Positions 2,987 through 54,758 are shown, counted from the stretch's first letter. The stretch: DNA of 64,000 nt from Alphaproteobacteria bacterium (GCA_033345275.1 JAWPOF010000007.1:215892-279891), one strand, 5' to 3'. Translations and numbers: made by a program. The notes: generated by a model from the sequence alone, not told the origin.

Positions 2987-3904
2987 ATGTTAAGACCTAT
3001 TTTGACCGCTGTTTTTGCTGGAATCGCTACAATTTCTGCCCACGCAGAAGAGATTTTTTACGACAACGTGCAAACGATTTACACTGAAACACCAGTACAA
3101 TCTTACTATGCGTATCCAGACGACATAAACTTTATTCCAGAAACTACGTTTATGGAACGTGCAGACAGTTTGAATTATGACCAAAATATAATTGCCAAAC
3201 GGAAACAAGAACTTGAAGAACATCCGGGGGTTAAGTTTGCAGATCGTCCCATGGTAATTTGTCGTAATTTTGGTTGCACGCGCATGAATGACCGCATTAC
3301 GCGTTCTTTCCTGTTCAACAGTATTGCGAACATGTTTATGATGAACTCGCACTCTCGCGTTTATATATGCGAAGCAGACCCGTTCTCGCGCGATTGTCTG
3401 GAATCTGGCATTTCTTTCCCAGCGCGCAGTGGCATTGCCAACGCAATACTTAAAATTCCCAAAGCAACAATTTCCCAGGTAAACCTCTCTACAGGACTTT
3501 CCAAGGCAACCGTCAGCATGACATATGAATTCCTGGTTAACGGCATCAACCGCGTTTGCGAACCAACCGTTATGGACATCGTAGTCCCCGTTAATTCCGA
3601 GGCAGTCCTATCAAATCGTGAATTCGCCTGCAATATGACCAGCGATGGCATCAGCAGCGTTTCCTTGATTGTCAGCCTGGACTACATTGATTTGGACTAC
3701 GGTATCTTGGGTGGCTATTATTCATTGGGCATGCAGGGACCAACAACTGGCGGTGGCACAGGTTACGCGTTGTTCAAAACAGAATTTGCAACCAGCAACA
3801 TGCAATTTCGTGCTGCTACATACGAAGAATACGTAACAGGCTCGGACAACACAGTACAAACAATTCGTCCCGGCGAATACGCAGTCGAACCACTAAGAAG
3901 ATAA
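2987..3904 (+). CDS. secreted hypothetical protein
   Basis: The 305-aa product has an N-terminal signal peptide 'MLRPILTAVFAGIATISAHA/EE'. I recognise no family motif. Its stop abuts the response-regulator start. Confidence 0.5.
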   Translation: MLRPILTAVFAGIATISAHAEEIFYDNVQTIYTETPVQSYYAYPDDINFIPETTFMERADSLNYDQNIIAKRKQELEEHPGVKFADRPMVICRNFGCTRMNDRITRSFLFNSIANMFMMNSHSRVYICEADPFSRDCLESGISFPARSGIANAILKIPKATISQVNLSTGLSKATVSMTYEFLVNGINRVCEPTVMDIVVPVNSEAVLSNREFACNMTSDGISSVSLIVSLDYIDLDYGILGGYYSLGMQGPTTGGGTGYALFKTEFATSNMQFRAATYEEYVTGSDNTVQTIRPGEYAVEPLRR

Positions 3905-5895: not shown

Positions 5896-5918
5896 CAAAG
5901 AAAATATGCCTGTTGCCC

Positions 5919-5946
5919 CTTGAAAACAAATTTTGCATAACTATAT
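5919..5946 (+). promoter_or_regulatory. putative sigma32-type heat-shock promoter of dnaK
   Basis: CTTGAAA is followed, after about 14 nt, by AACTATAT, resembling the CTTGAAA / CCCCATnT (alphaproteobacterial CYTATNT) RpoH consensus. It sits about 35 nt upstream of the dnaK RBS AGGAG. Confidence 0.4.
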
Positions 5947-5979
5947 GGTGTGTAAGCAAATTTTTAACAGGAGTAAAAA

Positions 5980-7875
5980 ATGGGAAAAGTAATTGGTATT
6001 GACTTGGGTACAACAAATTCAGCCATGGCATTCATGGATGGTTCAGACCCAAAAATTATCGAAAATTCCGAAGGTCAGCGCACAACCCCATCCGTTGTTG
6101 CATTGACATCAAACGGAGAGCAGTTGGTTGGCATCACAGCCAAGAACCAAGCGGTCACCAACCCCGAAAACACAGTCTATGAAATCAAACGTTTAATGGG
6201 TCTGCGTTTTGACAGCCCAGCGGTTCGCGAAATCGCCACACGCGTTCCATATAAAATCGTTGCGGGCGACAATGGCGACGCATGGGTTGAAATGAACGGC
6301 AAGAAATATGCCCCATCCCAGATTTCCGCAATGATTCTGGCAAAATTAAAAAAAGATGCAGAATCCTATCTGGGCGAACCGGTCACCGACGCGGTAATCA
6401 CAGTTCCCGCATACTTCAACGATTCTCAACGTCAGGCAACCAAAGACGCAGGTCGCATCGCAGGTTTGAACGTATTGCGTATTGTTAACGAACCAACGGC
6501 AGCGGCATTGGCATACGGTCTGGACAAGGACAAAGATGGCATTATCGTGGTCTATGACTTGGGCGGGGGCACATTTGACGTATCTATTTTGGAAATTGTT
6601 GACGGCGTATTCGAAGTTAAATCTACCAATGGCGACACAGCCCTGGGCGGTTCAGATTTTGACGCGCGCATCTTGGAACACTTGATTGCCGAATTTAAAT
6701 CACAGACTGGTATTGACCTGTCGGGCGACAAATTAGCGCTGCAACGTCTAAAAGAAGCCGCCGAAAAGGCAAAAATCGAACTGTCATCCAAGACATCAAC
6801 GGACATTAACCTGCCATTCTTAACAGCGGACGCGTCGGGTCCAAAGCACTTTAACACAACCCTGACACGTGCGAAATTGGAATCATTGGTTGCGGATTTA
6901 ATCGAACGTACAATCGAACCATGCAAAAAAGCATTAAAGGATGCAGGCCTGGAAAAATCACAGATTAACGAAGTTATCTTGGTCGGGGGCCAAACCCGCA
7001 TGCCCAAGGTTGCCGAAACGGTCAAAGAATTCTTTGGTCGCGAACCGCACAAAGGCGTGAACCCAGACGAAGTTGTCGGCATGGGCGCTGCCATCCAGGG
7101 TGGCGTACTAAAAGGCGATGTCAAAGACGTTCTGTTACTGGACGTAACGCCATTGTCGCTGGGCATTGAAACATTGGGTGGTGTGTTCACACGTCTGATT
7201 GACCGCAACACAACAATTCCAACCAAAAAATCCCAGGTGTTCAGCACCGCCGAAGACAACCAATCGGCCGTAACTATCCGCGTATTCCAGGGCGAACGCG
7301 ACATGGCGGCGGACAACAAATTGCTGGGTCAATTCAATCTGGAGGGTATCGCACCAGCCCCACGTGGCATGCCACAAATCGAAGTGTCTTTTGACATCGA
7401 TGCAAACGGCATTGTGCACGTATCGGCCAAGGACAAAGGCACCGGCAAAGAACAGGCGATTTCAATCAAATCCGACGGCGGTCTGTCCGAAGACGAAATC
7501 AAACGCATGGTTGACGAAGCTGCTGCTAATGCCGAAGCGGACAAAGCAAAACGCGAACTGGCCGAGGCCAAGAACACCGCCGAAACCGCAATTTTCAGCA
7601 TTGAAAAATCACTGAAAGAACACGGCGATAAAATCAGCGAAGCCGACAAAAAAGCCATCGAAGATGCCAAGAAAGAATTGGCGGACGAATTGGCACGTGC
7701 AGAAGCAACGGTTGACAGCCTGAAATCAAAAACCGAAGCGTTAACCGAACGCGCCATGAAACTGGGCGAAGCGGTCTATAAAGCCCAACAGGCCGAGCAG
7801 GGCGCATCCGCCGACACCACAGAAAAGAAAAACGACGACGGCACCGTCGACGCAGACTTTTCTGAAAAGAAATAA
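5980..7875 (+). CDS. dnaK: molecular chaperone DnaK (Hsp70)
   Basis: The 631-aa product has 'GIDLGTTNS', '[10 protein letters not shown]', '[11 protein letters not shown]' and a C-terminal lid with an acidic tail. Confidence 0.98.
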
Positions 7876-40343: not shown

Positions 40344-40387
40344 TGGCGTGCCCAGCAGGACTCGAACCTGCAACCTATTGCTTAGAA
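40344..40387 (-). repeat. direct repeat: 3' half of tRNA-Arg(UCU), from CCA end to anticodon loop
   Basis: TGGCGTGCCCAGCAGGACTCGAACCTGCAACCTATTGCTTAGAA matches 54682-54725 at 43 of 44 positions (C/T at position 18). Homology stops inside the anticodon loop. Confidence 0.9.
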
Positions 40388-40606
40388 ATCGTCTGAACCC
40401 AGACCGATGGTTCGCCCGATTTCTGCCCACTTGCGCCATTTTACCCTTATGGCAAACGCCATACTATGTAGCAAATATGTAACATTTTTGTAAAAATGTC
40501 CATAAAAAACTATAAAACTCCCTTTGTTGTATCTTGCACGCTGTTTTTTACTGACAAATATTTTGAACCATTGTATAAATAATATCGTTATGTACATGAA
40601 AGGACT

Positions 40607-40852
40607 ATGGAAATGGACAATATTTCAAATTTATTACAAGAGGCGAAACCGCTGTACTTGCAACGCAAGCAAATACGCAATCGTGTTAAATACCATTGTA
40701 TGGTCGTTGCAGTGGTGGCAATTTTTACCCCAATTTTTATCCATACACATCAAAATAACATTGATGTCGGTGCGCTGTATGCAGAATTGTATTCCACAGA
40801 CACAAATACCGAATACTATATTGATGAATTTGATGCCATAGGAATCATTTAA
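40607..40852 (+). CDS. small membrane hypothetical protein
   Basis: The 81-aa product has one TM, 'CMVVAVVAIFTPIFI'. Confidence 0.3.
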   Translation: MEMDNISNLLQEAKPLYLQRKQIRNRVKYHCMVVAVVAIFTPIFIHTHQNNIDVGALYAELYSTDTNTEYYIDEFDAIGII

Positions 40853-40921
40853 TGCGCGATACTGTGGATACGTATAAATTTCTGGTTCGCAAAATCGCAT
40901 AAATTCGGGCAAATAACACGA

Positions 40922-40946: not shown

Positions 40947-40951
40947 AATTC

Positions 40952-40983
40952 TGGTAGCAGCGGAGGGATTCGGACCCCCGACC
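40952..40983 (-). pseudogene. tRNA 3'-end-like fragment (T arm + acceptor strand + CCA) without a 5' half
   Basis: Reverse complement: GGTCGGGGGTCCGAATCCCTCCGCTGCTACCA. The T stem-loop is plausible, but no matching 5' acceptor strand, D arm or anticodon arm lies upstream. Confidence 0.4.
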
Positions 40984-41227
40984 AAAGGATTATGATAAGC
41001 AACCTAAACACGCCATACACCGTAGATTTCTGCGGTTTTTTGACTTTTGTAATGGCAGATGTCGCTAATATGTCGCCCACCGATTACAAGATTTTGCGAG
41101 TAAATACAAAAACTTACAAAAGCCAGCACAATGGTAAAAATATCACAATAAGCAAGACAAGTTTTTTATATATTGAAATGACGTATTGAATGCTTTGAAT
41201 AGAATTAAATAAAAATAGGTAAGTATC

Positions 41228-41256
41228 TTGACTTTTTTATAAAAATCCTATACCAT
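41228..41256 (+). promoter_or_regulatory. sigma70-like promoter of the thrS-paralog cassette
   Basis: TTGACT, a 17-nt spacer, then TACCAT (alternatively TATACC). Confidence 0.4.
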
Positions 41257-41266
41257 ACCAAACGTT

Positions 41267-41323
41267 ATGAAATTGTTATTTTTTATCTTTGAAACTTATA
41301 CTACAACCCCTTTTGGGGTGTAA
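41267..41323 (+). promoter_or_regulatory. 18-codon Thr-rich mini-ORF in the thrS-paralog leader (candidate leader peptide)
   Basis: ATG AAA TTG TTA TTT TTT ATC TTT GAA ACT TAT ACT ACA ACC CCT TTT GGG GTG TAA encodes MKLLFFIFETYTTTPFGV*. The Thr codons lie in the 5' arm of an imperfect hairpin at 41294-41325 (ACTTA...ACCCC TTTT GGGGT...TAAGT). Confidence 0.4.
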
Positions 41324-41410
41324 GTTCTTGTGCGTTTGCAAAAAAACAATAAAATCAGATGATGTAAAAACAAGGCTATTTTGAGCCTACTTGTATAAAA
41401 AGGTTAAATA

Positions 41411-43174
41411 ATGTCAAACAAATATGAAATAGAAATAATCAGACATAGTCTGGCACACGTTTTGGCGGCGGCTATAAAAAAACTATACCCAGATGTAAAA
41501 TTTGGCGGTGGTCCCGCTATTGCTAATGGCTTTTATTATGATTTTGATACGGAACATAGATTTTCTGATGCAGAATTTGCCACAATTGAAAAGGAAATGA
41601 AAAACCTAATTAAAAGCCGCGGTAATTTCGTTCAAAAAAACGTGTCTCTTGATGAAGCGAAAGAGATTTTCAAAGACCAACCATATAAAACCGAATGGCT
41701 AAATGAATATAATGATTTTGGCAAACAGCTATCTATTTACTCTTTTCGTGATTTTACAGACTTGTGTATTGGTCCCCACGTTGAAAATTCAAAAGATTTA
41801 CCAACAGACTCTTTTAAAATCAAATCTATTGCCGGCGCTTATTGGAAAGGCGACAGTAAAAATAAAATGTTGCAACGTATTTATGTAGATGCTTTCGCCA
41901 CAAAAGAAGAATTGGATTCGTTTCTTTTCGCACAAGAGGAGGCCGCAAAACGAGACCATAGAAAAATTGGTCCGGCGCTAGATTTATTTTTCTTTGATGA
42001 AAGGTCTCCGGGCGTTCCGTATTTTATGCCAAACGGGTGGATTGTTTATCGCGAATTATATAATTTTTGGTCCGAATATCACGAAAAACACGGCTATTTG
42101 GAATTTCGTTCGCCACTGATGAACAAAAAAGAACTGTACGAAACAAGTGGGCATTGGGAACATTATAAGGATAGTATGTTCACTTTCAAAGAAGATGATA
42201 ACAATGTTTTTGCTCTAGCGCCAATGTCTTGTCCGAATGCTATTGTTGCATATCAACACGAATCACGCAGTTATCACGATTTACCGTGGCGTTTGGCCGA
42301 TGCAGATATGCTCTATCGTTATGAAAATTCTGGTGCTTTGAACGGGTTGTTTAGGTCTTTTGAATTTAATCAAGACGATGCGCATATTTTTATTAGTGAA
42401 GATATGATAGAAGACGAGTACAATCGTATTATTGACATAATTCAATATTATTATAAATTGTTTGATATGAAATATTTTATAAAATTATCAACAAGACCTG
42501 ACGATTTTATGGGAGATATTGAAACTTGGAACAAAGCAGAGGCCATTTTGAAAAAAGTACTTACTGCACGATTTGGAGAAAATGGTTTTGGAATCAAGGA
42601 AAAAGACGGTGCGTTCTATGGACCAAAATTAGACATTCAGATGGTTGATAGTTTGGGAAGAGAATGGCAAACAGGTACTATCCAATTAGATTTCCAATTG
42701 CCACGAAATTTCAACTGTGTGTACACGGATAAGAATGGCGAGAAACAAACACCAATTATTGTTCATCGTACCGTTTATGGTTCTTTGGGCAGATTTATGG
42801 GATTGATGCTGGAACACTTGGCAGGCAAGCTGCCCGTTTGGTTGTCTCCTGTTCACGCAGTAATTATACCGATTTCCGACCACTGCAAAGAATATGCAGA
42901 TAGCATAGCTGCCCAGTTGCAAGATGTATATGTAAGAACTGCAACAGCTGGATTGCGCATCAAAAAAGACTATTCGTCTGAAAGTATGCAAAAGAAGATA
43001 CGAAATGCGCAACTTAAACAAGTTCCATATATGATTATTGTTGGCGATAAAGAACTAGAATCGCAAACAATATCGGTCAGAACCAGAGACGGCAAACAAG
43101 AAAATAATGTACAAATAGATAGTTTTATACAAAAGTTAACAGATAAAATCAAAAATAGAGACTTAACTATATGA
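41411..43174 (+). CDS. thrS: threonyl-tRNA synthetase paralog lacking the N-terminal TGS domain
   Basis: The 587-aa product starts at the editing domain ('IIRHSLAHVLAAAIKKLYP...GFYYDFD'). The class II core is 'PMSCPNAIV', 'YRYENSGALNGLFRSFEFNQDDAHIF' and 'PIIVHRTVYGSLGRF', followed by an anticodon-binding domain. It is AT-rich and inside the island. Confidence 0.9.
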   Translation: MSNKYEIEIIRHSLAHVLAAAIKKLYPDVKFGGGPAIANGFYYDFDTEHRFSDAEFATIEKEMKNLIKSRGNFVQKNVSLDEAKEIFKDQPYKTEWLNEYNDFGKQLSIYSFRDFTDLCIGPHVENSKDLPTDSFKIKSIAGAYWKGDSKNKMLQRIYVDAFATKEELDSFLFAQEEAAKRDHRKIGPALDLFFFDERSPGVPYFMPNGWIVYRELYNFWSEYHEKHGYLEFRSPLMNKKELYETSGHWEHYKDSMFTFKEDDNNVFALAPMSCPNAIVAYQHESRSYHDLPWRLADADMLYRYENSGALNGLFRSFEFNQDDAHIFISEDMIEDEYNRIIDIIQYYYKLFDMKYFIKLSTRPDDFMGDIETWNKAEAILKKVLTARFGENGFGIKEKDGAFYGPKLDIQMVDSLGREWQTGTIQLDFQLPRNFNCVYTDKNGEKQTPIIVHRTVYGSLGRFMGLMLEHLAGKLPVWLSPVHAVIIPISDHCKEYADSIAAQLQDVYVRTATAGLRIKKDYSSESMQKKIRNAQLKQVPYMIIVGDKELESQTISVRTRDGKQENNVQIDSFIQKLTDKIKNRDLTI

Positions 43175-43183
43175 TTTTATTGA

Positions 43184-43212
43184 TTGACAATTGGAAAATA
43201 ATCCTTTATCCT
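43184..43212 (+). promoter_or_regulatory. sigma70-like promoter in front of the peptide gene
   Basis: TTGACA, a 17-nt spacer, then TATCCT, 10 nt after the thrS stop. Confidence 0.5.
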
Positions 43213-43243
43213 TGGTGTAGGCCACCAGAAAAAGGAGTCTATT

Positions 43244-43345
43244 ATGACAAAAATTAAATTGTCTGCGATAATCCGTGTATCAAAATGCAATTCTTGCACT
43301 TGCTGCTGTGGCGGCGGCGGTGTTGGAGGAGATCCAGACCAATAA
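43244..43345 (+). CDS. 33-aa Cys-rich peptide, candidate RiPP precursor (unannotated, below the ORF-track cutoff)
   Basis: My translation is MTKIKLSAIIRVSKCNSCTCCCGGGGVGGDPDQ*. The strong RBS AAAGGAG ends 6 nt before the ATG. The gene lies 83 nt upstream of the radical SAM gene and is followed by a hairpin. Confidence 0.7.
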   Translation: MTKIKLSAIIRVSKCNSCTCCCGGGGVGGDPDQ

Positions 43346-43365
43346 AAAATACAGAGATAGTATTT

Positions 43366-43397
43366 CTGGGAAATATGTATTTGTTTCCCAGTTTTTT
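43366..43397 (+). terminator. intra-operon (probably leaky) terminator after the peptide gene
   Basis: CTGGGAAA-TATGTATTTG-TTTCCCAG (8-bp perfect stem) is followed by TTTTTT. Confidence 0.65.
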
Positions 43398-43428
43398 AAT
43401 AAATAATCTAATAAAGACAGGCAAAAAA

Positions 43429-44589
43429 ATGTTAAAACTATCCTCAGACATTATACGGTTCAAAAATTTTCTTATTAACACCAGAACAGGCGACTCTTTT
43501 GAAGTAGATGAAAAAACGAGTAGACTGATTGACTTTAAGGCAATAAATAGAACGGAAGAAAATTCATCTTTATTGGATACGATGATAGATAACAACATTA
43601 TTGTTGATACTGCTTATGATAAAGAAAAAAACTTTTTTCATTTGCAATGGCATTTGTTAAACGCCTGTAATTTAAGATGCAAACATTGTTATGATTGGAA
43701 AAACAAAACACAGACTTTAAATATTAAACAGATGTTTAAGGTGTATGACGATTTTGTATTTTTTGTAAAAAACGTTGGAGCACAGGCAGAAATTTCTTTG
43801 ACGGGAGGCGAACCTACCCTGTTCAAAGATTTAATACCCCTTATAGAATACATAAAGTCTAGAGATGTTTTTGCCCAAATTTACATACTATCTAATGGTT
43901 ATAATTTATTTAGCGATGAACTCTTGGAATGTTGCATAAAACATAATGTTGGTGTTCAAATCAGTTTAGATGGCTTAGAAGAAAAGCACGACGAGATAAG
44001 AGGCACTGGCGCTTTTGCTAAATCTATTGCAACTATCAAACAGCTAATAAGCAAAGGAATTTCTACCACGGTTCATTGCGTTCTTATGAAACGGAATATT
44101 GATGGAGTAGCAGAGTTTATTAGATTTTTAGACCCGATGGGATTATCAAGAATCAATTTCTCTACATTGATACCTATTGGTCCGGGGGCAGCAGAAGCAG
44201 CAGCAACTCCTCAAGAATTAAAAAAATGTATGGAGATGATAGTTGAAATGCAATCGACCACAAAAGCACGCATAATAGGAGAACGTCCATTATGGGCTTT
44301 GGTAGGTGGTTCTGGTATTTGCCCAATAGGAGACAAAACGTTGACCGTAGATGCAGCAGGCAATATGATGCCGTGTCGCAGACTACCTATGGTTATGGGA
44401 AATGTTCTTGAAGATAATTTATTAGAAGTTTGGTTAAAAAATGACTTTTTGAATAAAATGAGAGATAAGAAAAAGAATCTGGAAAAATGCGGAACGTGCA
44501 AATTTCTGGAAAGATGCGGCGGGTGTAGAGCTATGGCAGCGGCTGTCACTGGCAATCCACTAGCAGCAGACCCCTATTGCTGGCTCTAA
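43429..44589 (+). CDS. radical SAM/SPASM-type peptide-modifying enzyme (candidate maturase)
   Basis: ORF 43285..44589, with real start most likely MLKLSSD at 43429 because the upstream part overlaps the peptide gene out of frame. It has the 'CNLRCKHC' CxxxCxxC cluster, a ~90-aa N-terminal pre-domain, and the C-terminal Cys cluster 'CPIGDKTLTVDAAGNMMPC...CGTCKFLERCGGC...C'. Confidence 0.8.
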   Translation: MLKLSSDIIRFKNFLINTRTGDSFEVDEKTSRLIDFKAINRTEENSSLLDTMIDNNIIVDTAYDKEKNFFHLQWHLLNACNLRCKHCYDWKNKTQTLNIKQMFKVYDDFVFFVKNVGAQAEISLTGGEPTLFKDLIPLIEYIKSRDVFAQIYILSNGYNLFSDELLECCIKHNVGVQISLDGLEEKHDEIRGTGAFAKSIATIKQLISKGISTTVHCVLMKRNIDGVAEFIRFLDPMGLSRINFSTLIPIGPGAAEAAATPQELKKCMEMIVEMQSTTKARIIGERPLWALVGGSGICPIGDKTLTVDAAGNMMPCRRLPMVMGNVLEDNLLEVWLKNDFLNKMRDKKKNLEKCGTCKFLERCGGCRAMAAAVTGNPLAADPYCWL

Positions 44590-44632
44590 GTTATGGATAT
44601 AATACAATAAAAAAGCAGAACCTATTGATAAA

Positions 44633-45697
44633 ATGAGAGTAGTAATGAAAAATAGTTTGAACAAAAGTCTTTTAAAACAATTATTGAATACCGTTGTTCC
44701 TTCTGGTTATGAACAAGATATTGTTCGTCTTTGGACAAGTAAGGCAAAAGAGTTTACAAAAGATGTATATGTTGACTCAATGGGTTCTGCTCACGCTGTA
44801 ATAAATTCCAAGGCTAAAAGAAAAATTATAATAGCTGGACATTGTGATGAGATAGGTCTTATTGTAAAATCAATCACAGATAAGGGTTTTTTGAAAATAG
44901 GAACTATTGGTGGTTGGGACCCGCAAGTAGTTGTAGGACAACACGTTTTAATAAAAACCGCGAAAGGAATACAAAGGGGCGTTGTTGGTAAGCAACCAAT
45001 TCATAATATAATAGATATTAAAGCAGCCTCAAAAATAAAAGATTTATTTGTTGATATTGGCGCACCGGATAAACAATCCGCTGAAGCAATAGTGCAGATT
45101 GGGGACGCTATGGTTTTAGACCACGATTATGTAGAACTTCAAAACAATAACTTTGCTTCTAGGGGGTGCGATGATAAAGTCGGTGCTTTCATAGCATTGG
45201 AGGTTTTGCGTGAATTAAGCAAAGAAAAACTAGCAGTTGCAGTTGAGTTTATTGCATCTGTACAAGAAGAAGTCGGTACAAGAGGTATTCAACCTGCGGC
45301 ATATTTAGCAGATGCAGATATTGCTATCGCGGTAGATGTTAGCCCGACTAACGACTACCCCAATGCAGGCGCAGACAATGAACTTAAATTGGGCAAAGGG
45401 GCAGTAATCGGTAGAGGTCCACACGTAAATGCAAAATTATTTGAACTTCTCAAAAGTACTGCGGAATCCAATTCAATTCCATATCAAATAGAGGCTAGTG
45501 GTCGTCCATACGGAACAGACACAGAACCTTTGCAACGGGTTCGCAAGGGAACGGCGAGCGCTTTGCTTAGTATCCCTTGTAGGTATATTCATTCTCCATC
45601 TGAAACCTGCAATTTTGATGATATTCAGGCCATAATAAAATTGTTAGTACAAACTATATCTAAGATAACTACAAAAACAGATTTTAATTTTATTTAA
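44633..45697 (+). CDS. M42-family (FrvX/YsdC-like) aminopeptidase
   Basis: 'LLNTVVPSGYEQDI', 'IIIAGHCDEIGLIV', 'SRGCDDKVG', 'VQEEVGTRG' and 'PCRYIHSPSE'. The start is 44633 or MKNSL at 44645. Confidence 0.8.
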   Translation: MRVVMKNSLNKSLLKQLLNTVVPSGYEQDIVRLWTSKAKEFTKDVYVDSMGSAHAVINSKAKRKIIIAGHCDEIGLIVKSITDKGFLKIGTIGGWDPQVVVGQHVLIKTAKGIQRGVVGKQPIHNIIDIKAASKIKDLFVDIGAPDKQSAEAIVQIGDAMVLDHDYVELQNNNFASRGCDDKVGAFIALEVLRELSKEKLAVAVEFIASVQEEVGTRGIQPAAYLADADIAIAVDVSPTNDYPNAGADNELKLGKGAVIGRGPHVNAKLFELLKSTAESNSIPYQIEASGRPYGTDTEPLQRVRKGTASALLSIPCRYIHSPSETCNFDDIQAIIKLLVQTISKITTKTDFNFI

Positions 45698-45780
45698 AAT
45701 AAGCCTATGCCGTTTTTGGTGTCGGCTTTTCTCTATTGCTTTTTTTATAGTTTTGTGATATAATACCATAAAATCAAGTG

Positions 45781-45802
45781 GACGGTTCTAACCGTCTTTT
45801 TT
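45781..45802 (+). terminator. terminator-like hairpin downstream of the cassette
   Basis: GACGGTTCTAACCGTC is followed by TTTTTT. Confidence 0.5.
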
Positions 45803-45852
45803 ATTGCCTTGGCGCTCGTGCCGGGGCTTTTTTTCTTTCCGTAGGAGTTTTT

Positions 45853-45981
45853 ATGGCTAACACCAGCGCAAAGTTATTGCGTGCTAAACAGACTAAAAAT
45901 GATGAGTTCTATACGCAATACAACGATATAAAATCAGAACTAGAGGGAGAGAAATATGAAGAACAAACAGACCAAGAATAA
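45853..45981 (+). pseudogene. N-terminal fragment of an EcoRI-like (DEFYTQ-type) adenine methyltransferase
   Basis: 'MANTSAKLLRAKQTKNDEFYTQYNDIKSELE' has RBS AGGAG. As I recall it, this is the N-terminus of phage/RM adenine MTases. The ORF ends after 42 codons, overlapping the macA-like start. Confidence 0.5.
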
Positions 45982-47155
45982 AAAATCCAGCAAACGCATT
46001 CTGAAATACGGTGTGTTTGCGCTGGCAATTATTGGTACGATTGCAGTGTTTAGTGGTGGTGGCGATGAAAAACGCAACTATATCACGATAAATATAACGC
46101 GTGGCGACCTGTCCTATACGGTCAGTGCAACCGGTGAAATTCAACCTGTCAACACAGTAAATGTGGGTTCGCAAGTATCGGGAACAATTGACAATCTGTA
46201 TGTTGACTTTAATTCCAACGTTAAAAAAGGCGATATATTGCTGACGATTGAACCATCTGTTCTTCAGGCATCTGTTGACGAGGCCATGGCATCACTAACA
46301 TCTGCAAAATCCCAACGGGATTTCGCATTCAGCGAATACAAACGCAACAAAACCTTGTATAACGATGGCTTTATTTCACGTGCAGAAATGGAACAATCCG
46401 AAACCACATATAACCAGGCCGAACAATCTGTTAAAAAAGCCCAATCTACATACGACCGTGCGGTGACAAATCTGGGCTATGCAACGATTACATCCCCTGT
46501 CGATGGCACAGTTATATCACGCAAAGTTGATGTTGGTCAAACGGTTGCGGCATCTTTTTCAACACCCGACCTGTTTGAAATCGCCGAAGACCTGACCAAA
46601 ATGCAGATTGAAACATCTGTATCCGAGGCAGACATTGGTGTTATCCGCGAAGGTCAACCCGTCACATTCACCGTTGATGCATACCCAACAGATATTTTTA
46701 ACGGCACTGTTCGTCAGGTTCGCTTGTCCCCCACAACAACATCCAACGTTGTCGTTTATACGGTTGTAATTGATGTTGATAATTCTGATATGCGCCTGAT
46801 GCCAGGAATGACCGCATTCGTAACCGTTATTATCAACAGTGCTGAAAATGTGTACAAAGCACAAAATGCCGCTTTCCTTATTCGCAATTTCAAAAGCATT
46901 GACCCAACATTAGATGAAACGATTACACCCGACACCCATCTGGCAATTATGCGTGATGGTGAAATTCAATTTATTGAATATAAAAAAGGGCTGGAATCTG
47001 CCACAGAAACACAAATTATATCAGACCAGATAATGGATGGCGACCGCATCGTTGTCGGTGTCCAAGGACAAACATCCACAACCCAATCAAGCAACAATCG
47101 CGGTGGTCCAATGGGCGGTCCTGGTGGTGGCGGTCCAATGGGTAGACCAATGTAA
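45956..47155 (+). CDS. macA: HlyD/MacA-family periplasmic adaptor
   Basis: It has an N-terminal TM, 'ATGEIQPVNTVNVGSQVSGTI', a coiled-coil hairpin, 'ATITSPVDGTVISRKVDVGQTV' and a Gly-rich tail. Confidence 0.8.
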   Translation: MKNKQTKNKKSSKRILKYGVFALAIIGTIAVFSGGGDEKRNYITINITRGDLSYTVSATGEIQPVNTVNVGSQVSGTIDNLYVDFNSNVKKGDILLTIEPSVLQASVDEAMASLTSAKSQRDFAFSEYKRNKTLYNDGFISRAEMEQSETTYNQAEQSVKKAQSTYDRAVTNLGYATITSPVDGTVISRKVDVGQTVAASFSTPDLFEIAEDLTKMQIETSVSEADIGVIREGQPVTFTVDAYPTDIFNGTVRQVRLSPTTTSNVVVYTVVIDVDNSDMRLMPGMTAFVTVIINSAENVYKAQNAAFLIRNFKSIDPTLDETITPDTHLAIMRDGEIQFIEYKKGLESATETQIISDQIMDGDRIVVGVQGQTSTTQSSNNRGGPMGGPGGGGPMGRPM

Positions 47156-47168
47156 TATGGGGGCGACT

Positions 47169-47906
47169 ATGGCAAAAAATACACCTGTTATTTCAATGCA
47201 TAAAATCTGCAAATCGTTTCCCATGGAAATGGGCGGCGAACAACAGGTTTTATTTGACAACACATTTGATATTTATTCTGGCGAATTTGTATCTATTATG
47301 GGACCATCAGGGTCTGGCAAATCAACATGTATGAACATTATTGGTGCGCTGGACACCGCCACATCTGGGACATATAAACTCTATGGCACAGATATTACAA
47401 CAATGTTGCCCGATGAATTGGCCGTTGTCAGAAATGAACATATTGGCTTTGTTTTTCAACAGTTTAACCTGTTGCCGAAACGCAATGTTTTGGACAATGT
47501 AATGTTGCCATTGATGTATCGCGGACTGCCAATGGCGAAACGGGTACAAAGCGCCCGCGAAATGCTGAAACTGGTGGGGTTGGAAAACTTTGAAACATAC
47601 CTGCCAACACAATTATCAGGGGGGATGAAGCAACGTGTTGCAATCGCACGTGCGTTGGCAGGCAACCCAAAACTGATTTTGGCAGACGAACCTACAGGCG
47701 CACTGGACAGTAAAATGGGAAATGAAATTTTACAGTTCTTCAAGAAATTAAATCGTGAACTGGGGATAACAATCATAATGATTACACACGAATTTGATAT
47801 TGCCATGTATTCTGACCGCCTGATTCATATCTATGACGGGCATATCACATACGATGGCAAAATCCCAAAATCAGAATCACATATACCAAAGGCATATAAA
47901 AAATGA
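47169..47906 (+). CDS. macB: MacB/LolD-type ABC transporter ATP-binding protein
   Basis: The start MAKNTPVI has a GGGGG RBS. It has Walker A 'GPSGSGKST', signature 'LSGGMKQRVAIARAL' and Walker B 'ILADEPTGALD'. Confidence 0.88.
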   Translation: MAKNTPVISMHKICKSFPMEMGGEQQVLFDNTFDIYSGEFVSIMGPSGSGKSTCMNIIGALDTATSGTYKLYGTDITTMLPDELAVVRNEHIGFVFQQFNLLPKRNVLDNVMLPLMYRGLPMAKRVQSAREMLKLVGLENFETYLPTQLSGGMKQRVAIARALAGNPKLILADEPTGALDSKMGNEILQFFKKLNRELGITIIMITHEFDIAMYSDRLIHIYDGHITYDGKIPKSESHIPKAYKK

Positions 47907-49120
47907 ATATACAAGATATCGCCAAAGAATCATGGCTGTCCATCAGTGGTAATAAGATGCGGTCTTTTTTAACCGTCTTGGGAATTGTTATCGGTGTTAT
48001 GGCGGTGGTAATTATGGTGGCTGTCGGTGAAACTGTACAAAAATCCATCACAGACCAATTTTCATCGCTGGGGACGAACACCATTATGATACGAGCTGGC
48101 GCGGCACAGTCCGCCGGTGTGCGTGGTGGAAATCGCCAAACCCTAACCATGGACGATGCAGAATTTTTGGGACAATTACCCGATGTTGCGGCGGTCACCC
48201 CTGTTCAAAATGCTGCCGCCCAGGTTGTCTATGGGAATAAAAACTGGTCCACATCAATGGTCGGTGCATGGCCAGATTATGCAACCGTACAAAATATAGA
48301 AATAGAATATGGAACTTTCTTTGATATGTCTGCGGTACGAAACGCATCAACACATGCTGTCATTGGTCCCGAAACCGCCGAAGAGCTGGGGATGGGGAAA
48401 AATCCTGTGGGGCAAGTTATACGTGTGCAAAACACACCATTTACAATTGTCGGGGTCACACGTGCCAAGGGTGATTCATCTATGGGCAGCCAAGACGATA
48501 TGATTATCATTCCAATCACAACATTAAAGAAACGCCTGTCGGGTTCTCGTTTCCCAAATGCAGTACAAATGGTGTCATTAAAACTATATAACGATGCTGA
48601 TAATAATTTGGCAATTGAACAAATGACATTATTGTTGCGTCAACGACATAAACTGGACGACAATGATGCAGATGATTTTCAAATTACAGATATGAAGCAA
48701 GTCATGGAAACAATGGAAACTGTATCTGGATACTTAAAATTATTACTGGTTGCGATTGCGGCGGTGTCGCTTTTGGTTGGGGCAATCGGCATTATGAATA
48801 TGATGTTGGTTTCTGTTGCAGAACGCACACGTGAAATCGGTATTCGCAAGGCAATTGGTGCACGCGAACGCATGATTATTATTCAGTTTTTGTCGGAATC
48901 TGTTCTGATTTCTTTTATCGGTTCTATGATTGGTTTGATATTAGGGGTGGGATTATCCCAGGGCATTGGGCGTTTTGTATTGGGGTATGCTGTACCGTTC
49001 AGTATTTGGCCGGTTGTTGTATCGGTTACAGTTGCGATTGTGGTAGGGCTCGCATCTGGTGTTATGCCTGCACGCAAAGCCGCCAAATTACACCCAATAG
49101 ACAGCCTGCGATACGAGTAA
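47903..49120 (+). CDS. MacB/FtsX-type ABC transporter permease
   Basis: The 405-aa product has TM1, a large periplasmic domain and a C-terminal FtsX 3-TM bundle ('ERTREIGIRKAIGAR'). It overlaps the ATPase gene by 4 nt. Confidence 0.85.
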   Translation: MNIQDIAKESWLSISGNKMRSFLTVLGIVIGVMAVVIMVAVGETVQKSITDQFSSLGTNTIMIRAGAAQSAGVRGGNRQTLTMDDAEFLGQLPDVAAVTPVQNAAAQVVYGNKNWSTSMVGAWPDYATVQNIEIEYGTFFDMSAVRNASTHAVIGPETAEELGMGKNPVGQVIRVQNTPFTIVGVTRAKGDSSMGSQDDMIIIPITTLKKRLSGSRFPNAVQMVSLKLYNDADNNLAIEQMTLLLRQRHKLDDNDADDFQITDMKQVMETMETVSGYLKLLLVAIAAVSLLVGAIGIMNMMLVSVAERTREIGIRKAIGARERMIIIQFLSESVLISFIGSMIGLILGVGLSQGIGRFVLGYAVPFSIWPVVVSVTVAIVVGLASGVMPARKAAKLHPIDSLRYE

Positions 49121-49121
49121 C

Positions 49122-49149
49122 ACACCGCCCGTTCTGGGCGGTGTTTTTA
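49122..49149 (+). terminator. terminator after the exporter operon
   Basis: ACACCGCCCGTTCTGGGCGGTGT is followed by TTTTT, immediately after the stop. Confidence 0.8.
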
Positions 49150-49281
49150 TACCAAAATTCCTGTGTAAAAAATATGTAAAACTAAAACCATATCCGGACC
49201 AAGATATAAAAAGCTTGTTTATTTCCCTGGCTATTCCATTTTTTGTTGGCATTGTTGTGTTGAAAAAACAAGAGGCACAAC

Positions 49282-53398: not shown

Positions 53399-54655
53399 TT
53401 GTGCGCTTTTATTATCAATGTTGTGTGTAACAAAGGACAACATATGCGAGCACTCAAATGTCAAAAGTTGGTTTTAACAACAGGATTTCTGAACAAGCTG
53501 AAATCTGACATTGATTTGCAGATAACAGATGCGGCACTGCCGGGGCTACAATGCCGGTATTCTGCCGCATCTGGGCGCAAAGTGTTCTATTTGGGATATC
53601 GCGTTCGCGGTTCATATCAACAAAAGCATATGAGATTGGGCACATTGGCGGAATTTAGCTTAAATGAGATTCGCGCACGTGCGATACAAACCAAGCAAGA
53701 TATCGCCAAGGGCCTGGACCCGCAATCAGAACAGCGCATACGCATAAAGCAAAACGAAATAGCCGCAGCACTACGGAAACAAGTCCGTGAACTAACCCCA
53801 ATATTTATGGAAAAACATTGTCGCGAAAACAATCGGGAAAACACCTATCGCTCAAACGAAATATTGATGCGCCTGTATATAATCCCATATCTTGGCGATA
53901 AATACATTGCAGATATCGATCTGTGCACAATCCAAGACATGTACGACAAAATCAAAAACACTAAAACCGTTGCTGTCGCACTACACGTTATGCGGTTATT
54001 GTCGACTTTTCTGAATTGGTGCGAAAAATACAATTATCGCACAATAAATTCAAATCCGTGCCATTTGGTTCAAAAGGCAAAATCCCCAAAGATGAACCAT
54101 ACGATTCTAGATATTGATGGTTATAAACGTTTATTTACTGCACTGGACGAGGCATTTTGTGCTGGGAAATATGCACCGCAAACCATCCTGGCTATTAAAA
54201 CACTTGCACTGACAGGCTGTCGCAGCAGCGAAATAACAAGCCTGGAACGGGACGAATTAGACCTAGAAAACGGGTATCTACGTTTAAATAAACGCAAAAC
54301 AGATGCATTTAATGTGCCACTGGGCGATCCAGCAATAGAAGTTATAAAACAGGCGTTAAGAATTTGTAAAAGCAAACAGTATGTTTTTCATTCCCCAATT
54401 GACCATACACGCCCATTAACCGATTTGCGTAAAGCGTTCTGGTGGGCATTGGACCGTGCGGAATTACCGCGTATGCGCATACATGACCTGCGTCATTCGT
54501 TTGCAACACTAGCAACCAGCATGGGCGAAGATATACGAATATTAAAAGACGTACTGGGACACACAAAAATCACCACAACAGAAATATACGCACACGCATC
54601 AAGTATTGCAGCACGTCGCACCGCAAACAATGTCGCCAGCATGATAACAGGATAA
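53399..54655 (+). CDS. int: tyrosine-type (phage) integrase
   Basis: It has 'LTGCRSSEITSL', 'RIHDLRHSFATLA' and 'LGHTKITTTEIYAH' (R..HxxR..Y). The start is possibly MRALKC at 53444. It ends 26 nt from tRNA-Arg. Confidence 0.92.
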   Translation: MCAFIINVVCNKGQHMRALKCQKLVLTTGFLNKLKSDIDLQITDAALPGLQCRYSAASGRKVFYLGYRVRGSYQQKHMRLGTLAEFSLNEIRARAIQTKQDIAKGLDPQSEQRIRIKQNEIAAALRKQVRELTPIFMEKHCRENNRENTYRSNEILMRLYIIPYLGDKYIADIDLCTIQDMYDKIKNTKTVAVALHVMRLLSTFLNWCEKYNYRTINSNPCHLVQKAKSPKMNHTILDIDGYKRLFTALDEAFCAGKYAPQTILAIKTLALTGCRSSEITSLERDELDLENGYLRLNKRKTDAFNVPLGDPAIEVIKQALRICKSKQYVFHSPIDHTRPLTDLRKAFWWALDRAELPRMRIHDLRHSFATLATSMGEDIRILKDVLGHTKITTTEIYAHASSIAARRTANNVASMITG

Positions 54656-54681: not shown

Positions 54682-54758
54682 TGGCGTGCCCAGCAGGATT
54701 CGAACCTGCAACCTATTGCTTAGAAGGCAATTGCTCTATCCGGTTGAGCCATGGGCAC
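54682..54758 (-). tRNA. tRNA-Arg (anticodon UCU)
   Basis: Reverse complement: GTGCCCATGGCTCAACCGGATAGAGCAATTGCCTTCTAAGCAATAGGTTGCAGGTTCGAATCCTGCTGGGCACGCCA. All four stems pair perfectly, with anticodon loop CTTCTAA and an encoded CCA. Confidence 0.92.

Follow-up and report, generated by a model that had tools for sequence, protein, structure and literature searches.

What kind of product is made by a cassette in which the gene of a threonyl-tRNA synthetase (ThrRS) stands beside those of a cysteine-rich peptide of 33 residues, a radical S-adenosylmethionine (rSAM) enzyme and an M42 peptidase, and why should a translation enzyme be part of it? This question is raised by the region 41.2-45.8 kb of a 64,000-nucleotide stretch of DNA from an alphaproteobacterium (GCA_033345275.1, JAWPOF010000007.1:215892-279891), which as a whole is called the window in the following. 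A reading made from the sequence alone (the sequence-only reading) had proposed that an undescribed system for a ribosomally synthesized and post-translationally modified peptide (RiPP) is encoded here. This was borne out by a conserved precursor, a maturase which stays below every family cutoff and a peptide without NCBIfam match. About an even chance is given here to the full reading proposed below, in which the cassette is the biosynthetic unit of a new family of rSAM-modified RiPPs aimed at ThrRS. The link of the family to ThrRS is real, as shown by repeated co-localization; the role of the synthetase proposed below is drawn by analogy.

The gene positions and families named by the sequence-only reading were all recovered in the Pfam and NCBIfam assignments. 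On the plus strand, thrS (41411-43174; 587 amino acids; TIGR00418, 615 bits, cutoff 384) is followed by the precursor gene (43244-43345), the rSAM maturase gene (43429-44589; 386 amino acids, with the start set by homologues) and the gene for an M42 (TET-type) aminopeptidase (44633-45697, with an alternative start at 44645). The cassette is AT-richer than the core genes, with a computed GC content of 0.32-0.385 at 41-46 kb compared to 0.48-0.51 around dnaK at 6-8 kb. Proteins that cluster at 90% identity or more with DnaK, LeuRS, MacA and FtsX of the host assign it, by their names, to an uncultured alphaproteobacterial MAG (metagenome-assembled genome). Its own promoter-like and terminator-like signals were also located, namely the site TTGACT-17-TACCAT in front of thrS (41228-41256, plus strand) and two strong tandem intrinsic terminators after the M42 gene (45780-45827, plus strand), with stems of 7 and 9 bp and a T-run each. 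Over the entire window, terminator-like sites are in excess (18 versus 7 in shuffled sequences), and promoter-like sites are not (38 versus 31). A possible internal promoter before the precursor gene (TTGACA-17-TATCCT; 43184-43212, plus strand) was recognized by consensus match only, at 10 of 12 positions.

The precursor peptide and its maturase

The precursor gene had not been annotated. It codes for MTKIKLSAIIRVSKCNSCTCCCGGGGVGGDPDQ, and an AAGGAG ribosome-binding site is located 7 nucleotides upstream. That this 33-codon open reading frame (ORF) is a real gene was substantiated by its conservation beside the maturase gene in about 20 distinct loci and by purifying selection on the core. The neighbourhoods compared were drawn from assemblies, from one genome per species (185,579) and from JGI metagenomes, and the loci are designated by L numbers. 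In nearly every locus of the family, an ORF for 24-39 amino acids was identified directly upstream or downstream of the maturase gene on the same strand; the small Cys-rich ORF that had been expected next to homologous rSAM genes in other genomes is thus present in nearly every locus examined. No recognizable precursor was found within 1.5-2 kb of the maturase gene in L012, a metagenome-assembled genome (MAG) of an alphaproteobacterium with a maturase of 42% identity. L108 is cut off by the end of its contig.

Seventeen distinct precursors from about 20 loci can be aligned. They have the leader M-K-K-[IV]-x-[LI]-x-x-[IL]-x-P in common and carry two kinds of core. The type A core is [AS]-C-T-C-C-x-C-G-G-[PG] with a variable tail behind it, and its Thr is invariant. 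This type was found in the window and in L183, L002, L007, L011/L106, L087-89/L176, L090-95, L096, L100, L178 and L179. Type B precursors end with S-C-C-[TMA]-S-C-K, typically SCCTSCK, and originate from loci of the candidate phyla radiation (CPR), namely L008-L010, L097-99, L101-105, L107 and L181. Both types share Cys at the aligned core positions 4 and 7, which corresponds to a CxxC-like spacing. In the window precursor, the leader comprises about residues 1-16, and the core is SCTCCCGGGG, followed by a variable tail. None of the family peptides matched an NCBIfam model at E<=10, including the models for ACGX-repeat, selenobiotic and SCIFF precursors.

The evidence for selection comes from L183, a second copy of the thrS, peptide and maturase genes with 35% GC and 78% nucleotide identity to the window. 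The core of L183, NSCTCCCGGGGVGGDPDQ, is unchanged, since all 5 differences in its codons are synonymous and 0 are non-synonymous, which argues for purifying selection on the coding sequence; 5 non-synonymous and 5 synonymous changes were found in the leader. Of the five Cys in eight residues named by the sequence-only reading, the fifth one, Cys15, is not kept in this closest homologue, where it is replaced by Ser. In both loci a hairpin is located 3' of the precursor gene. The one in the window (43366-43391, plus strand) includes a T-run and is likely a partial terminator that would set the ratio of precursor to enzyme. As a separate observation, the L183 contig of 3.67 kb contains the thrS, peptide and maturase genes only, and its ends (1-23 and 3649-3671) are identical, TTTGACTATTTGTTGTGCGCTGG. 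These repeated 23 nucleotides could mean a circular unit, a tandem repeat unit or a repeated promoter.

The maturase was identified by its Radical_SAM domain (PF04055, 67 bits, cutoff 29.5) and its SPASM domain (PF13186, 39 bits, cutoff 21.5). The CX3CX2C cysteines within the motif CNLRCKHC (C80, C84 and C87) and seven cysteines of the SPASM part (C298, C316, C354, C357, C363, C366 and C384) do not vary among 36 homologues, which confirms both Cys clusters named by the sequence-only reading. By profile search, the nearest PDB sequences are those of SkfB, the anaerobic sulfatase-maturating enzyme anSME, CteB and PqqE. The AlphaFold model, with a predicted local distance difference test score (pLDDT) of 93, has SkfB, SuiB and CteB as its top PDB folds over the full length.

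When the N-terminal 70 amino acids were modelled in isolation (pLDDT 81), the best fold matches were RiPP recognition elements (RREs), with TbiB1 (TM-score relative to the query, TMq, 0.67) ahead of TfuB1, the SuiB N-terminus, MadB and MibB (TMq 0.57-0.67; E 0.05-3). Weak matches to the Pfam model for PqqD were obtained for 4 of 22 members, the best with an E-value of 0.011. From the modelled fold, residues 1-70 likely constitute an RRE. An N-terminal domain at the place where RREs are usually located had been predicted, and it is present with an RRE-like fold; its length is about 70 amino acids and not about 90. Relatives of the TIGR04053 and AhbD type, which cover 82-83% of the maturase, are devoid of this domain.

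No curated NCBIfam cutoff is reached by the maturase. The highest scores were those for TIGR04053 (156 bits, cutoff 395), the ACGX model TIGR04340 (153, cutoff 400) and the SbtM model TIGR04082 (145, cutoff 350). The families of sactipeptide maturases were considered and rejected, with 80 of 300 bits for SkfB (TIGR04403) and 97 of 625 for StsB (NF045574). The SCIFF/ranthipeptide class was likewise rejected, with 91 of 340 bits for PapB (NF047865) and peptides that match no SCIFF model; the SCIFF maturase model TIGR03974 is not among the top 25 NCBIfam matches. Non-RiPP families fared no better, with 128 bits for AhbD (cutoff 500), 107 for NirJ (515), 100 for MftC (265) and 84 for PqqE (381). 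With scores so far below the cutoffs, the robust placement in a non-RiPP rSAM family which would have spoken against the sequence-only reading was not found. The assignment as a RiPP maturase outside any catalogued family is supported by these results.

The family is rare. Full-length relatives of the maturase form about 36 clusters at 40-56% identity, and more distant matches do not contain the first approximately 70 residues. Members were found in 6 of the 185,579 species genomes, and of 1.84 billion representatives at 50% identity only a handful matched over the full length. In PLSDB plasmids and IMG/VR viruses no family member was detected, only rSAM proteins with 25-30% identity. The hosts are uncultured gut Alphaproteobacteria, a Tannerella MAG and CPR bacteria. 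A literature search on RiPPs with ThrRS, on immunity by aminoacyl-tRNA synthetases (aaRSs), on M42 peptidases with RiPPs and on Cys-rich rSAM RiPPs in CPR bacteria gave no description of the family, with subscription journals sparsely covered.

The M42 aminopeptidase expected beside the maturase was clearly identified (PF05343, 274 bits, cutoff 23). It reaches no NCBIfam equivalog cutoff, with 204 of 700 bits for lysyl aminopeptidase. In the type A locus L178, an M42 gene also directly follows the maturase gene, and its product is 34% identical to the one from the window. TET/M42 enzymes degrade oligopeptides from the N-terminus, an activity which would suit the removal of a leader from a 33-residue peptide. 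By analogy, the M42 peptidase is a probable leader-trimming enzyme.

Other genes vary among the loci. A small methyltransferase is encoded in L091/92 and L179; in L091 (1921-2493) and L179 (11279-11857) a TehB-like methyltransferase gene, dependent on S-adenosylmethionine, is located directly 3' of the precursor gene. In these two type A loci, which are free of ThrRS, it may be an alternative gene for tailoring or self-protection. A second rSAM gene is present in L091 and L178. The L178 region 5913-7365, directly after the M42 gene, comprises a 48-codon ORF and then the second rSAM/SPASM gene, whose product is best matched by the ranthipeptide maturase PapB (129 bits, cutoff 340); the two may form a second RiPP pair. 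A MatE gene was identified in L176 and an EamA gene in L002, L105 and L181.

All type B loci share a conserved protein of 257 amino acids, encoded directly after the precursor gene (L181, 11289-12062; also L009, L099, L101, L103 and L105). It has no match in Pfam, NCBIfam or PDB, and its 48 homologue clusters, nearly all from CPR bacteria (Nomurabacteria/Parcubacteria), are named 'hypothetical'. By eye the protein seemed GNAT/Fem-like, and the idea of tRNA-dependent transferases as a theme was dropped. L009 (JAMPXW010000001.1), binned as a Burkholderiales MAG, has about 20 kb of gene order in common with the CPR-type (Nomurabacteria-like) contig L099, which makes the Burkholderiales label of the bin doubtful.

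The linked threonyl-tRNA synthetase

In 5 of the 10 distinct type A loci, thrS directly neighbours the genes for peptide and maturase, and four arrangements occur. In the window and L183, the order is thrS, peptide gene, maturase gene, all forward. In L002, the peptide and maturase genes are forward and thrS, which codes for a ThrRS with a TGS domain, is reverse. Maturase and peptide genes in forward and thrS in reverse orientation were found in L011/L106 from Moranbacteria and in L096, which contains two reverse thrS genes. The order in L087-89/L176 (62% GC) is matE, peptide gene, maturase gene and thrS, all forward. The ThrRS-linked loci span GC contents from 35 to 62% and belong to two separate parts of the maturase tree, and the identities among their ThrRSs amount to only 37-50%; this implies either a very long retention of the linkage or more than one origin. 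Around more distant rSAM/SPASM genes, a ThrRS or M42 gene was present in 0 of 132 control loci (1.64 Mb). The co-occurrence of ThrRS and M42 genes with the family, which the sequence-only reading had suggested as a check, is therefore recurrent beside the family and absent from the controls. In L096 (1620-5168), one of the two ThrRSs is bacterial-type with an editing domain, and its neighbour is an archaeal-type, catalytic-only enzyme that scores 473 bits with NF003068, just below the cutoff of 484.

The cassette ThrRS consists of the editing domain (tRNA_SAD), the class II core and the anticodon-binding domain, and the TGS domain is absent. When aligned with the E. coli enzyme (1QF6), it retains what we take to be the zinc ligands (Cys334, His385 and His511), the editing motif HxxxH and R363, R375 and D383; contacts to ATP and Thr are intact as well. 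The closest relatives, 80-88% identical, are also TGS-less, have 585 amino acids and are encoded in ordinary chromosomal contexts of genomes with 35% GC, in one case with the gene order rsmE, rluB, TPR, thrS, SPOR and in another near LysM and pfk. Beyond these, identity falls off gradually, down to about 52%, among proteins named ThrRS from MAGs of Alphaproteobacteria and Rickettsiales. Of the earlier description as a TGS-less thrS paralog, the missing domain stood, and the specialized paralog did not, because a form of 585-587 amino acids is normal in a low-GC alphaproteobacterial lineage. Sequence relationships point to such a lineage as the one from which the cassette was acquired.

The native promoter and leader found before orthologous thrS genes were retained by the cassette thrS. 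The -35 element TTGACTTTT is invariant upstream of the orthologues in L172, L182 and L183. A leader mini-ORF of 18 codons (41267-41323, plus strand), MKLLFFIFETYTTTPFGV, contains a run of Thr codons, and mini-ORFs of 17-18 codons are conserved in L172 (MMYRLFVLTLTTTTPLGV; 3162-3218), L182 (MSILFFILNNSTTTPSGV; 179-235) and L183 (about 150-205). The endings with the Thr run read ..TYTTTPFGV, ..TLTTTTPLGV and ..NNSTTTPSGV. The 3' end of the mini-ORF overlaps a conserved CCCC-N4-GGGG hairpin, after which a T-rich tract follows. Rfam gave no match for the thrS leader, and two tRNAs only in the whole window. These features suggest a putative attenuator in the style of pheL or thrL, which would sense the charging of tRNA-Thr.

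The MacAB segment and the tRNA-Arg island

Directly downstream of the cassette, genes for a MacAB-type pump are located on the plus strand: macA for the adaptor (45956-47155; TIGR01730, 167 bits, cutoff 95), a gene for a MacB-type ATPase (47157-47906; ABC_tran) and one for a MacB_PCD/FtsX permease (47903-49120; MacB_PCD and FtsX). Adaptor, ATPase and permease all reach their family cutoffs, and a terminator follows the permease gene (49122-49144). The computed GC content of these genes (0.43-0.44) is above that of the cassette (0.32-0.385). The sequence-only reading had included this exporter in the system. This part did not hold, since an operon with 93.8% nucleotide identity to the window (45925-49149) exists without the cassette in the relatives L167/L169, and terminators lie in between. 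In L167/L169, genes for an extracytoplasmic function (ECF) sigma factor, an LTXXQ protein and a TolC-like OEP protein precede macA, and the end of the OEP gene overlaps macA. The window pump is devoid of the OEP gene and the sigma factor. Since the sequence immediately upstream of the L167 sigma gene is matched by 40554-40896 of the window, the cassette has replaced the part from the sigma gene to the OEP gene of an older operon. Between the M42 gene and macA, the two terminators are accompanied by the remnant of a DNA methyltransferase N-terminus (45853-45981, plus strand; weak PF13651 match on a called gene of 67 codons), and the homology to L167 begins at 45925. MacAB was found in no other locus of the family. 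By sequence comparison, the pump is probably a bystander, the remainder of an older efflux operon; it may still be used opportunistically by the product. Separately, L167 has an intergenic site, located about 2.6 kb downstream of its pump, with 100% identity to 49 nucleotides of the window (40948-40996).

The cassette had been described as cargo of a tRNA-Arg island, and the integrase, the tRNA-Arg and a 44-nucleotide direct repeat were all identified. At the left end, the 3' half of tRNA-Arg is present as a direct repeat (40344-40387), identical in 43 of 44 nucleotides to 54682-54725. A tyrosine integrase (53399-54655, plus strand; PF00589, Arm-DNA-bind_3, Phage_int_SAM_3) is encoded next to the right end, which is formed by tRNA-Arg(TCT) as the attachment site (54682-54758, minus strand). 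This island of 14.3 kb comprises the cassette, MacAB and phage-like genes. Just outside it, an ORF of 1859 codons (32582-38161, minus strand) without Pfam match codes for a Cys- and Lys-rich protein with low-complexity stretches, at a GC content of about 0.39. Two facing resolvase/invertase genes (38356-39403) overlap by about 80 nucleotides, and the second is truncated by the first approximately 60 residues of the catalytic domain. The facing resolvases and the low GC content at 32.5-40.3 kb suggest an older mobile segment beside the tRNA-Arg island.

Proposed function, alternatives and known systems

The reading preferred here is a new rSAM RiPP with ThrRS as its target and the linked thrS as a means of self-protection. 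Its chemistry and target are taken from analogy, and it is held with as much confidence as doubt. The precursor, with its observed conserved leader (M-K/T-K-I/V-x-L/I) and core (S/A-C-T-C-C), would be bound at the leader by the RRE-like domain of the maturase, as the fold suggests. The CTCC core would then be modified by the maturase, which by its observed class is a three-cluster rSAM/SPASM enzyme; the likeliest chemistry would be an intramolecular thioether of the sacti- or ranthi-type, or a related Cys-centred reaction, giving a compact, protease-resistant core. The recurrence of the M42 gene in two loci suggests that its product may remove the leader from the N-terminus until the modified core is reached, a task which host peptidases might alternatively perform. 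For export, an available drug-type pump might serve, perhaps MacAB here and MatE or EamA elsewhere. The product would act on ThrRS and may thus be an antibiotic of a new kind, and the cassette thrS would supply an insensitive or additional enzyme, whose expression the Thr-codon leader would raise when the charging of tRNA-Thr falls. Target and self-protection are proposed on the precedent of the gene clusters for borrelidin, obafluorin and vibriomycin, in which ThrRS homologues serve as self-resistance genes (PMC13515044, bioRxiv 10.1101/704981). The strongest form of this proposal is a first RiPP class of aaRS inhibitors, in which a cross-linked CTCC peptide would block ThrRS and producers from phyla as far apart as CPR bacteria and gut Alphaproteobacteria would carry a protective thrS, switched on here by the Thr-codon leader; it is put forward tentatively, with doubt somewhat outweighing confidence.

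Several observations weigh against a protective role of ThrRS and the proposed processing. Compared to 33 close homologues, the cassette ThrRS has only 3 unique substitutions, all conservative; its catalytic and zinc-binding residues are intact, and no resistance-type substitutions were found. The ThrRSs of the window and L183 are not separated as a clade from those outside such loci. That the linked thrS is an added copy in the host genome is a supposition, as it is for L002, L106 and L176. Half of the type A loci and all type B loci are without a ThrRS gene within view. M42 genes are adjacent in two loci only, the window and L178. The similarity to RREs is that of a 70-residue domain and has non-significant E-values (0.05-0.5).

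Since the link to ThrRS allows more than one interpretation, other roles of the peptide were considered. It might be a metal-binding peptide, for instance a thiooxazole-type chelator acting as a metallophore or in zinc economy, with ThrRS, itself a zinc enzyme, as a paralog for zinc limitation and not as a drug target. The CxxC-like spacing in both core types would suit this, as would the third-best NCBIfam match to the thio(seleno)oxazole-forming SbtM, but that score (145 bits) is far below the cutoff of 350. M42 peptidases are enzymes of Zn or Co, a HMA P-type ATPase is encoded 2.6 kb upstream in L176, and EamA or MatE exporters are located near some loci. A precedent is given by Anabaena, for which duplicate ThrRS genes under the control of zinc and Zur are documented (PMC4787780). 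The HMA ATPase is confined to one locus, however; genes for metal regulators, importers or receptors do not recur beside the family, and thrS is preceded by a Thr-codon leader and by no obvious metal-regulator box. A metal-binding role is therefore considered unlikely. Still less is expected of the idea that ThrRS is a biosynthetic partner which supplies Thr-tRNA for a tRNA-dependent tailoring reaction or modifies the peptide directly, perhaps through threonylation of a Cys thiol. The invariant Thr of the type A core and a linked ThrRS that looks fully active by its sequence would fit, and aaRSs from gene clusters sometimes feed tRNA-dependent enzymes (review PMC12945691). Yet no transferase of the PEARL/LanB, Fem/GNAT or cyclodipeptide synthase (CDPS) type was detected in the window or as a recurrent gene of type A loci, and the conserved type B partner belongs to no detectable family. 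Half of the type A loci lack a nearby ThrRS, and the housekeeping enzyme could suffice.

A peptide-derived cofactor or signal for use within the cell, comparable to pyrroloquinoline quinone (PQQ) or mycofactocin, would reduce the link to ThrRS to regulation, by co-transcription under a Thr-sensing leader. The precursors, with 24-39 amino acids, are comparable in length to PqqA and MftA, an RRE-like domain, an rSAM/SPASM enzyme and a peptidase are combined in the same way, PqqE and MftC are among the matches, and the thrS, peptide and maturase genes of the window can be co-transcribed. The low MftC and PqqE scores given above speak against it, as does the lack of a recurrent cofactor-dependent enzyme beside the family, and a patchy, rare distribution on mobile DNA and in CPR bacteria is better explained by an accessory competitive trait; a cofactor is thus very unlikely. 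The view that MacAB is a dedicated exporter, and 41.2-49.1 kb one darobactin-like operon, has a slim probability, similar to that of the biosynthetic ThrRS. All genes are directly adjacent on the same strand, the MacB ATPase resembles DarD (222 bits), and the pump, having lost its sigma factor and promoter region, may need read-through from the cassette for its expression. Against this stand the nearly identical MacAB operon with its own OEP gene and without the cassette in relatives, the step in GC content from 32-38 to 43-44%, the intervening terminators and gene remnant, the lack of MacAB at other family loci, and scores below the cutoffs for DarD (375) and for DarB (15 of 700 bits). Finally, the peptide could be a chance ORF beside a non-RiPP rSAM enzyme, for instance one that matures sulfatases or belongs to heme or cofactor metabolism, since AhbD, NirJ and anSME-like models are among the sub-threshold matches. 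This is barely credible for a peptide that is conserved beside the enzyme in different phyla and subject to purifying selection, and for an enzyme with an RRE-like N-terminal domain that is absent from AhbD- and TIGR04053-like relatives.

For the new rSAM RiPP with ThrRS as the proposed target, the interest is evident. Much new chemistry comes from RiPPs modified by rSAM enzymes. As an antibacterial target ThrRS is validated, and its few natural inhibitors (borrelidin, obafluorin and the vibriomycins) include no peptide. The biosynthetic unit is very small, with a precursor of 24-39 amino acids, a single enzyme and in some cases an aminopeptidase; the family falls outside all curated models, and it carries a built-in target hypothesis. 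Should the link to ThrRS be metabolic or related to metals, it would still be an unexplained recurrent coupling of a translation enzyme to a modified peptide.

Among known systems, SkfB (6EFN), CteB from the SCIFF system (5WGG) and SuiB (5V1T) are alike in combining a leader-binding domain, putative in the present maturase, with the rSAM core and a SPASM or twitch domain with auxiliary clusters, and their substrate is likewise a short precursor from a neighbouring gene, with Cys in its core. They differ in being only 17-20% identical to the maturase, and the precursors described here are much shorter (24-39 amino acids), with a CTCC or SCCTSC core. The ACGX and SbtM systems also have small cores containing Cys or Sec, but the maturase scores are under half of their cutoffs; TIGR04053-like enzymes are without the N-terminal domain. 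The resemblance to darobactin (darABCDE) comprises a short precursor, an rSAM/SPASM enzyme, a Gram-negative host and an ABC exporter nearby. This likeness, which the sequence-only reading had invoked, is superficial in view of the separate origin of MacAB. The darobactin core is aromatic and not Cys-rich, the maturase has 66 of 650 bits with DarW and 86 of 450 with DynA, and the exporter in the window is an unrelated leftover. The pathways for PQQ and mycofactocin likewise start from a very short precursor and use an rSAM/SPASM enzyme, and a PqqD-like RRE and the release of a small product by a peptidase would be further likenesses; they differ in that no partner dehydrogenases are present here and that the family is mobile and rare.

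With respect to ThrRS, the systems for borrelidin (BorO), obafluorin (ObaO) and the vibriomycins have, as here, a complete ThrRS gene recurrently in or beside the biosynthetic genes. Their products are polyketides, non-ribosomal peptide synthetase (NRPS) products or beta-lactones and not RiPPs, and the ThrRS of the cassette is not visibly diverged. Inhibitors of the microcin C or 'Trojan horse' type are based on a ribosomal peptide carrier with an aaRS as target, and broad aminopeptidases take part in their processing. The proposed likeness thus lies in the ribosomal peptide, the aaRS target and the role of an aminopeptidase; microcin C differs by AspRS as target and an MccB-type adenylyltransferase, in place of which an rSAM enzyme, ThrRS as the proposed target and a peptidase encoded by the producer are found or postulated here. 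In comparison to all these systems, RiPPs modified by rSAM enzymes are known as a class, and the novelty of an uncatalogued family of precursor and maturase linked to a translation enzyme is supported.

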